Positions 14,115 through 14,967 of a DNA stretch of 64,000 bases are shown here, in pieces (the stretch's first letter is position 1; each line of letters opens with the position of its first letter). The DNA lies in the NCBI RefSeq assembly GCF_003334815.1, contig NZ_QOWO01000023.1, one strand, 5' to 3'. Under the pieces are notes generated by a model that searched no databases, had not been told where the DNA came from, and was given only the letters and a program-made list of their open reading frames with translations. The stretch is from Escherichia coli. GTDB lineage: Bacteria > Pseudomonadota > Gammaproteobacteria > Enterobacterales > Enterobacteriaceae. The position numbers were made by a program, and so were the translations under genes.

Positions 14115-14810
14115 TCAGGCGAATCCCGGACGTAACACACCATCCGGAAAATTCTCCGCCAGCAGTTTTTTTACCGATACCAGCAAATCATTCAGCCCAT
14201 CGTCCTGCATTCCCAGTTTGATAAGCTCCTGTTCCAGTGAAAACAGGTATTGTGCGTTGGTTCCCAGCGGACCGCTCGCCGCCGCAATCAACGGCGCGAT
14301 GACCTGAGCGCGAGTATCAGATTCATATTCTGGATGTCGCGGGTCCATAATAAACACAATGGCGTTTACTGTGCGTCCATCATCAAGATCAAGCTGACAC
14401 CAGGTTGGCAGATAACAGCCGGTAATCATCTCTCGCTTCCACAACAGGGTTAGTTCCTGCTCCAGCGTCTCTTCTGGCAGTCGATAGGCGACGCCTGTGG
14501 TGCGTCCGCCCTCTTTCAGTGCAAGCATCCGTCCCGGCTGGTGCGCAGTCCCGCGCCCGGCGGTCAGGCGCAGGCAAAATGCGCGATGCCATCCAACCAG
14601 TGTACCGGTGCACGATTCGGTAAACTCCAGTGCCGGATTCCACATCAACGATCCATAGCCGAAGATCCACACCGGTCCCTCATCAGGTCGACAAGCCAGC
14701 GTCGCCGCCAGCGAAGCCGCCCGTTGTTCTGCTGACCATAAGAGTGATTCTTCAATGGCACCAAATGCCGTTTTACAATCGGCATTCATCAAGAAATCAC
14801 GCGTTATCAC
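14115..14810 (-). CDS. chaC: Glutathione-specific gamma-glutamylcyclotransferase
   Basis: ChaC-family ORF (YGSLMWNP motif); GTG at 14810 gives the 231-aa product; ORF track extends 12 codons further upstream. Confidence 0.85.
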   Translation of the reverse strand: MITRDFLMNADCKTAFGAIEESLLWSAEQRAASLAATLACRPDEGPVWIFGYGSLMWNPALEFTESCTGTLVGWHRAFCLRLTAGRGTAHQPGRMLALKEGGRTTGVAYRLPEETLEQELTLLWKREMITGCYLPTWCQLDLDDGRTVNAIVFIMDPRHPEYESDTRAQVIAPLIAAASGPLGTNAQYLFSLEQELIKLGMQDDGLNDLLVSVKKLLAENFPDGVLRPGFA

Positions 14811-14967
14811 CTTACACCTCCGCCACTGCATACTTCCCTGCGACAACTTTTTGGTGTCTTCCGGACATTTTTACTGCTCATTTTGAAACCACTAACGGGA
14901 CAATATGCAATCCACGGACCACTTGCAAGGCAACACCGCACGAATAGCTTTAACTAAGCGACCGGTT

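Follow-up and report, generated by a model that had tools for sequence, protein, structure and literature searches.

The chaC gene lies on the minus strand of a 64,000-nt stretch of an Escherichia coli contig (hereafter, the window), downstream of chaB and among 59 annotated genes. The window is collinear, with a constant offset, with the reverse complement of positions 1,223,317–1,287,316 of the K-12 MG1655 chromosome, a segment that runs from minE to narI. MG1655 annotation was placed on the window by the relation: window position = 1287317 − MG1655 coordinate. Approximately 400 mismatches to MG1655 were found, nearly all of them at both ends of the window and in the ldr repeats, the others being scattered SNPs, and every annotated MG1655 CDS except ychS translates intact. 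The source strain is not K-12 itself. When 5,426 complete E. coli genomes were searched, 5,419 matched the 3-kb region around the chaC ORF with a coverage of at least 80%. As a second source of annotation, we used the PGAP annotation of strain 720632, a close collinear relative; neither PGAP nor the NCBIfam models referred to below are independent of the K-12 annotation. The start codons considered here belong mainly to 18 genes, chaC among them, that the original prediction had singled out (the listed genes). Their coordinates, together with those of other features, are collected in Table 1.

The two ends of the window have peculiarities of their own. The last 72 nt (63929–64000) differ from MG1655 as well as from strain 720632 and match a multi-copy element that occurs on chromosomes and plasmids, at as many as 45 sites in a genome; the junction is absent from every complete genome of the collection. 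This terminal sequence presumably resembles an end of IS10. At the opposite end, positions 1–700, beside narI, differ from MG1655 through rearranged tyrT-associated RtT repeats. Three RtT sRNA copies are annotated in strain 720632, and the MG1655 ychS ORF is broken in the window.

Table 1. Features of the window discussed in the text, in order of position. Positions count from the first letter of the window; the fifth column gives the place of the annotated start relative to the longest ORF.
Feature	Positions	Strand	Start codon	Place in longest ORF	Remarks
narK	7969–9360	−	ATG	2 codons inside
chaC longest ORF	14115–14846	−	TTG (14846)		243 aa; overshoots by 12 codons
chaC CDS	14115–14810	−	GTG	12 codons inside	231 aa; MG1655 b1218 and PGAP WP_001336325.1
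Rejected downstream ATG of chaC	14787–14789	−	ATG		Would give 224 aa (MNADCK...)
chaC initiation codon	14808–14810	−	GTG		Start codon in all 80 species loci
Conserved noncoding chaC leader block	14811–14850	−			GTCGCAGGGAAG-N3-GCAGTGG(C/T)GGAGGT; from cross-species alignments
chaC Shine-Dalgarno (SD) GGAGG	14817–14821	−			6 nt before GTG
Rejected upstream ATG of chaC	14829–14831	−	ATG		Start in the 2006 K-12 annotation, 238 aa
chaA	15468–16568	+	ATG	29 codons inside	N-terminal peptides
hemA	22347–23603	−	ATG	66 codons inside	NF000744 position 1
prs	25442–26389	+	GTG	22 codons inside	N-terminal peptides
pth	28804–29388	+	GTG	Longest-ORF start
dhaK	36479–37549	+	ATG	10 codons inside	TIGR02363 position 1
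dhaL	37560–38192	+	ATG	26 codons inside	SD AAGGAG, −9.3
dhaM	38203–39621	+	ATG	2 codons inside	N-terminal peptides
ycgR	42790–43524	+	GTG	Longest-ORF start	NF047947 position 1
emtA	43526–44137	−	GTG	38 codons inside	NF012014 position 1
cvrA	45246–46982	+	TTG	Longest-ORF start	NF003714 position 1
dadA	48448–49746	−	ATG	2 codons inside	NF001933 position 1
fadR	51660–52379	−	ATG	8 codons inside	NF003444 position 1
nhaB	52600–54141	+	ATG	18 codons inside	TIGR00774 position 1
dsbB	54287–54817	+	ATG	2 codons inside	NF002485 position 1
hlyE	56923–57834	+	ATG	48 codons inside
ycgN	58041–58517	−			Nested starts: longest ORF 158 aa, MG1655 153 aa, PGAP 148 aa
ycgL	59310–59636	−			MG1655 108 aa; PGAP 97 aa (start 59603)
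minC	61237–61932	+	ATG	5 codons inside	Least-tested start

As judged from its sequence, the chaC product is a glutathione-specific γ-glutamylcyclotransferase of the ChaC family. It matches Pfam PF04752 (E = 5.6e-57) over model positions 1–175 of 176, residues 59–227 of the 243-aa ORF; Pfam was used since no NCBIfam family for ChaC was found at E ≤ 1e-20. The family includes members of solved structure (human ChaC2, 6KY0, and yeast 5HWK). Similarity to the solved ChaC2 extends from the substrate-binding YGSL motif onward, with FGYGSLMW of ChaC aligned with FGYGSLIW of 6KY0 (E = 4.7e-16). The enterobacterial protein differs in that its catalytic core is preceded by an N-terminal extension of ~45 residues, which is not covered by the solved ChaC structures and which is conserved from residue 2 in the 80 species compared below. 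Since the catalytic core begins ~45 residues in, the fold does not fix the chaC start codon. The gene is induced during growth with 200 to 400 mM NaCl at pH 8.8. Glutathione-degrading activity has been reported for E. coli ChaC in a paper on the cha genes, which also describes the cotranscription of chaB and chaC and does not address the chaC start codon (bioRxiv 10.64898/2026.05.15.725350).

The start codon was instead examined by scanning one genome per species, which yielded 80 orthologous chaC loci of other species from Escherichia, Citrobacter, Enterobacter, Kosakonia, Klebsiella/Raoultella, Kluyvera, and other genera. The 231-aa protein is aligned from its first residue at every one of these loci, and the codon homologous to GTG 14810 is GTG in 60 species, ATG in 19, and TTG in 1. 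A GGAGG motif is located 5 to 9 nt upstream of this codon in 78 of the 80 species, and the anti-SD duplex energy calculated for GTG 14810 in the window is −13.3 kcal/mol. Residues 2–7, (L/I)TRDFL, are invariant, and the variability of codons 2–31 amounts to 0.037, 0.023, and 0.327 at the first, second, and third codon positions, a coding signature present from the start onward. The sequence upstream of the start contains in-frame stops and 1-nt or other non-triplet indels in several genera. An NTG triplet is missing altogether between the chaC start and the upstream stop in 39 loci, i.e., no upstream start is possible there, and in 26 loci the stop is at most two codons away from the start.

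Published mapping of initiation sites in K-12 by tetracycline-inhibited ribosome profiling (TetRP) points to the same codon. There, the chaC start was moved by +21 nt to this GTG, with 18.8, 12.9, and 15.1 normalized reads in three replicates, compared to 0, 8.4, and 0 reads at the ATG of the 2006 record; the 2014 record, shifted 21 nt downstream from that of 2006, agrees with the GTG start (PMC4909307, Tables S2 and S3). The N terminus predicted for initiation at GTG 14810 is fMet/Met-ITRDFLMNADCK. The TRAINSPOTTER table has no entry for a ChaC N-terminal peptide (PMC13245402, Table S1); the tryptic or ArgC peptide, MITR, would probably be too short to be detected.

These data have to be weighed against three other in-frame codons. 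Translation from TTG 14846, the 5′ end of the longest ORF, would give a 243-aa ChaC. No NTG is closer to the upstream stop, and some loci of Escherichia, Citrobacter, and Enterobacter have a TTG, ATG, or GTG at the equivalent position. However, this codon has no SD (−3.5 kcal/mol), an in-frame stop is located fewer than 12 codons upstream of the chaC start in 32 of 80 species, a 1-nt deletion separates the equivalent codon from the GTG in several Citrobacter species, and no TetRP call was made there in K-12 (PMC4909307). We regard translation from TTG 14846 as scarcely credible. A more serious competitor, though still a very improbable one, is ATG 14831, which could be the main chaC start or a second, co-used one producing an N-terminally extended proteoform. 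ATG is a stronger initiator than GTG, which speaks for this codon, and about one-third of the species loci contain it. Its T, however, occupies a variable leader position (T, C, G, or A), so the codon is not conserved; stops are located between it and GTG 14810 in many species; and its SD is weak (−4.2 kcal/mol). The 8.4 normalized reads in one TetRP replicate make minor use in K-12 possible, but the other two replicates gave no reads at this ATG against 12.9 to 18.8 at the GTG (PMC4909307).

A start further downstream, at ATG 14789, would place the GTG within the leader. This is the first downstream ATG, and 45 of 80 species have it; in the other 35, though, the residue at this position is L, I, or R. 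Moreover, the six codons 5′ of it specify the invariant (L/I)TRDFL and vary in the manner of coding sequence, no SD precedes it (−2.4 kcal/mol), and the TetRP peak falls on GTG 14810 rather than here (PMC4909307). The chance that ATG 14789 is the real chaC start seems to us vanishingly small.

Overall, it is very probable that chaC starts at GTG 14810, that its leader is untranslated, and that the other listed genes likewise start as curated. Translation would begin at GTG 14810 with the help of the GGAGG located 6 nt upstream and yield the 231-aa γ-glutamylcyclotransferase, while the 36 nt from TTG 14846 to the GTG would be a conserved untranslated leader that happens to contain no in-frame stop. 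At the other listed genes, the longest-ORF rule would likewise take as start whichever NTG is nearest to the preceding stop, a codon that by chance is located beyond the true start in ~40% of the window genes. Initiation in the source strain is presumed to be the same as in K-12.

The leader block is conserved directly 5′ of chaC across at least 10 genera, and the longest ORF wrongly includes it. No match was found when positions 14700–15500 were scanned against Rfam at E ≤ 1, and RNAalifold applied to 27 chaC leaders returned only 3 pairs (−1.5 kcal/mol), i.e., no conserved structure. The block contains two GGA motifs, one resembling the CsrA core CARGGA and the other overlapping the SD, as in CsrA-repressed mRNAs, hence the idea that the 36- to 40-nt leader (14811–14850) might be a functional translational control element, possibly of the CsrA type. 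A search of the literature on chaC and CsrA returned nothing relevant, and we consider the idea a long shot. If it were true, laboratory K-12 would misreport chaC regulation, since its chaC SD carries a G-to-A substitution. This SNP is at position 14818: the source strain and most E. coli have GGAGG, while strains of the K-12 laboratory lineage (MG1655, C600, J53, and others) have GGAAG. The exact 61-mer spanning this position was found in 4658 records in the window version and in 355 in the K-12 version. Since GGAGG is present in all 78 other species with a match, the K-12 base is derived, and it weakens the chaC SD. Further upstream, in the chaB-chaC spacer (14880–14930, minus strand), there is a conserved promoter-like sequence, TTGCAA-17 nt-TATTGT.

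The overshoot seen at chaC was measured across the window by extending every annotated gene in the 5′ direction until an in-frame stop was reached. The longest ORF had been said to overshoot all the listed genes; this is the case for 15 of 18, the exceptions being cvrA, ycgR, and pth, whose starts coincide with the 5′ ends of their longest ORFs. The broader wording, internal or non-ATG starts, does cover all 18, including these three, whose start codons are not ATG. It was likewise right that several listed starts are GTG or TTG: six of them are, with GTG in chaC, prs, emtA, ycgR, and pth and TTG in cvrA. The list was not exhaustive. Overshoot was also found for narL (38 codons), ymgN (28), ymgE (11), ldrA, ldrB, and ldrC (9), ycgN (5), dhaR (3), and treA (1), and non-ATG starts for ychO (TTG), dauA (GTG), and ycgY (GTG). 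Altogether, 24 of the 59 window genes (~40%) are overshot, which is no more than chance would give, the numbers of NTG and stop triplets predicting a proportion of ~0.55. Overshoot is therefore produced by the longest-ORF rule itself and carries no signal. Start-codon usage in the window is also ordinary for E. coli, with 50 ATG, 7 GTG, and 2 TTG starts (9 of 59 being non-ATG).

Annotated starts stand out by their SD: the median energy is −6.1 kcal/mol for these starts, whereas the 40 alternative codons located upstream have a median of −2.1, at the background level of −2.2 given by random NTGs. With a cut-off of −6.0 kcal/mol, the 10th percentile of anti-SD duplex energies of random NTG triplets, a recognizable ribosome-binding site precedes 11 of the 18 listed starts. 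The expectation that most of them would have one thus holds for these 11, while values are weaker for hemA, fadR, minC, pth, chaA, dsbB, and dhaK.

Direct evidence for several starts comes from deformylation-assisted N-terminomics of E. coli (PMC13245402, Table S1). For prs, an N-terminal peptide from the GTG start was published along with a PDMK... form; a Met encoded by this GTG must come from initiation. The ATG three codons downstream (25451–25453, plus strand) is also used, as evidenced by the peptide MKLFAG... (PMC13245402), and the TIGR01251 Prs profile begins at this codon. The dhaM start is documented by the peptides MVNLVIVSHSSR and VNLV... and that of chaA by MSNAQEAVKTR and SNAQ... 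(PMC13245402). Comparison agrees in both cases: the GTG/TTG codons upstream of dhaM are missing in three genera, and the chaA start is ATG in 78 of 79 species loci. N-terminal peptides likewise confirm the starts of narL, narG, prfA, dadX, and minE (PMC13245402). N-terminal proteomics or start-site profiling had been proposed as a check of the listed starts, and the published data thus bear out prs, dhaM, and chaA by peptides and chaC by TetRP. Peptides mapping upstream of assigned starts, which were to count against them, are absent, for the genes of the window, from the published tables examined.

Alignment with orthologs, the other check that had been proposed, was carried out with contigs from Enterobacter, Salmonella, Kosakonia, Cronobacter, Citrobacter, Klebsiella, Yersinia, and Trabulsiella. 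Homologs gave access to comparators for the dha operon and for the fadR region; on Enterobacter contigs, synteny from prs toward the dha operon breaks past ychF, at Rhs elements. The cross-genus comparison backs most of the listed starts. The genes hemA, pth, dauA, cvrA, emtA, ycgR, nhaB, fadR, dhaK, dhaL, and chaA keep their annotated start codons across the genera compared, and their upstream extensions are closed by stops or contain no NTG. In the case of dsbB, dadA, dhaM, and hlyE, some genera lack the NTG located shortly upstream. Full-length NCBIfam models begin at the annotated starts of emtA, hemA, chaA, dhaK, nhaB, fadR, dsbB, dadA, dhaM, cvrA, ycgR, and narL.

Among the genes that start at the longest-ORF end, cvrA has TTG in all five genera with no alternative start, ycgR has GTG in four genera, and the GTG of pth is conserved, with an Enterobacter stop one codon upstream. 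Salmonella, Enterobacter, and Kosakonia share the GTG of emtA, two of them with stops seven to eight codons upstream, and the emtA start is directly followed by a lipobox, LLAGC. In Enterobacter, the frame upstream of the hemA ATG is closed by a stop at a distance of 15 codons, and no alternative start is available. A TTG 23 codons upstream of hemA (23671–23673, minus strand) is preceded by an SD-like AAGGGGG (−10.7 kcal/mol) that is, however, 13 nt away; the frame between this TTG and the hemA ATG is closed in Enterobacter, and the SD of hemA itself is almost nonexistent (−2.9 kcal/mol). Stops are located four to nine codons upstream of nhaB in three genera. Kosakonia and Cronobacter lack the dadA GTG at −2, and three of four genera lack the ATG upstream of dsbB. 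FadR homologs in Enterobacterales are mostly 239 aa long among the matches listed, and the TTG upstream of fadR is not conserved. Nearly all full-length DhaK homologs among the matches listed are 355 to 356 aa long and leave the first 10 residues of the longest ORF uncovered, and Klebsiella has a stop one codon upstream of dhaK. The dhaL ATG is conserved, with stops six to eight codons upstream in three genera. Many E. coli assemblies contain a 570-aa protein with Dak1 and Dak2 domains and 98 to 100% identity to DhaK, which corresponds to dhaK-dhaL (36479–38192, plus strand). It is an apparent DhaK-DhaL fusion, or else a frameshift or assembly artifact at the 10-nt junction.

Independent support, in the form of peptides, comparison, or a mapped transcript start, exists for all 18 listed starts except narK. 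The weakest are narK, where only the SD position is informative, minC, and hlyE with its ATG at −2. These three are the candidates if at least one of the 17 listed starts other than chaC were wrong or had a co-used neighbor, which we consider unlikely. The minC ATG is conserved across the genera compared, but so is an NTG at −5 (TTG in the window), found in all four other genera; this NTG has no SD, and the 15 nt before the ATG show no third-position variation, while third-position variation is seen in 12 of the 24 codons that follow. The hlyE transcript start was published at 72 nt upstream of the ATG (PMC2156107). It maps to 56851 in the window, behind a −35 element TTGACG and a −10 element TATGAAT, and TTG 56779 of the long ORF, being located 72 nt upstream of the transcript, is outside the mRNA; upstream stops are also present in Salmonella and Trabulsiella. 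The hlyE ATG at −2 is kept in Salmonella, has an SD score of −5.2 versus −6.2 for the annotated codon, and is included in the 305-position NCBIfam model; yet it is just 3 nt away from GAGG and is lost in Trabulsiella. For narK, the comparators come from Citrobacter alone and are identical at the upstream GTG, hence non-discriminating, but this GTG, at −2, sits within the SD (GAGGTG). Closely spaced co-used starts do occur in the window, as prs demonstrates (PMC13245402); against this, MG1655 and PGAP agree on the starts of minC, hlyE, and narK. The curated starts of these genes thus remain our preferred ones.

The beginnings of hlyE (56917–56925, plus strand) and dsbB (54281–54289, plus strand) share the sequence ATGATTATG, with two ATGs one codon apart. 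In both genes, annotation places the start at the second ATG, which is also the better conserved of the two.

The listed starts had also been named as the places where an error is most likely. This did not hold: all 18 match both MG1655 and PGAP, and the starts on which the two annotations disagree, those of ycgL and ycgN, were not on the list. For ycgL, TetRP (PMC4909307) and two N-terminal peptide data sets (MFCVIYR; including PMC13245402) favor the shorter form. When four genera were compared, the 11-codon extension contained stops in Kosakonia and Cronobacter and had no ATG in Salmonella, and the long start looks like an over-extension. The 148-aa form of ycgN has the length of NCBIfam NF003498 and is supported by TetRP (PMC4909307); in Enterobacter and Cronobacter, a stop codon occupies the site of the 153-aa start. 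The two starts are the genuinely doubtful ones of the window, since here the MG1655 record conflicts with experimental and comparative evidence.

Correct N termini are needed for expression constructs, for signal-peptide and lipobox prediction, as in the case of emtA, and for proteomics databases, although the importance of the present results is modest. A longest-ORF track overshoots ~40% of genes even in an ordinary E. coli region, and SD position combined with cross-genus comparison recovers the curated starts. The listed starts are already contained in curated annotation and published start-site data; the original prediction was correct in this respect, routine, and already known. The chaC gene analyzed here is the same gene as that of MG1655 (b1218, NP_415736.2, GenBank U00096.3), with the same GTG start and the same 231-aa product. 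Genome-wide re-annotation of E. coli starts by TetRP (PMC4909307) and TRAINSPOTTER (PMC13245402) asked a like question with like evidence; compared to these studies, our analysis adds only a cross-species check for each start.
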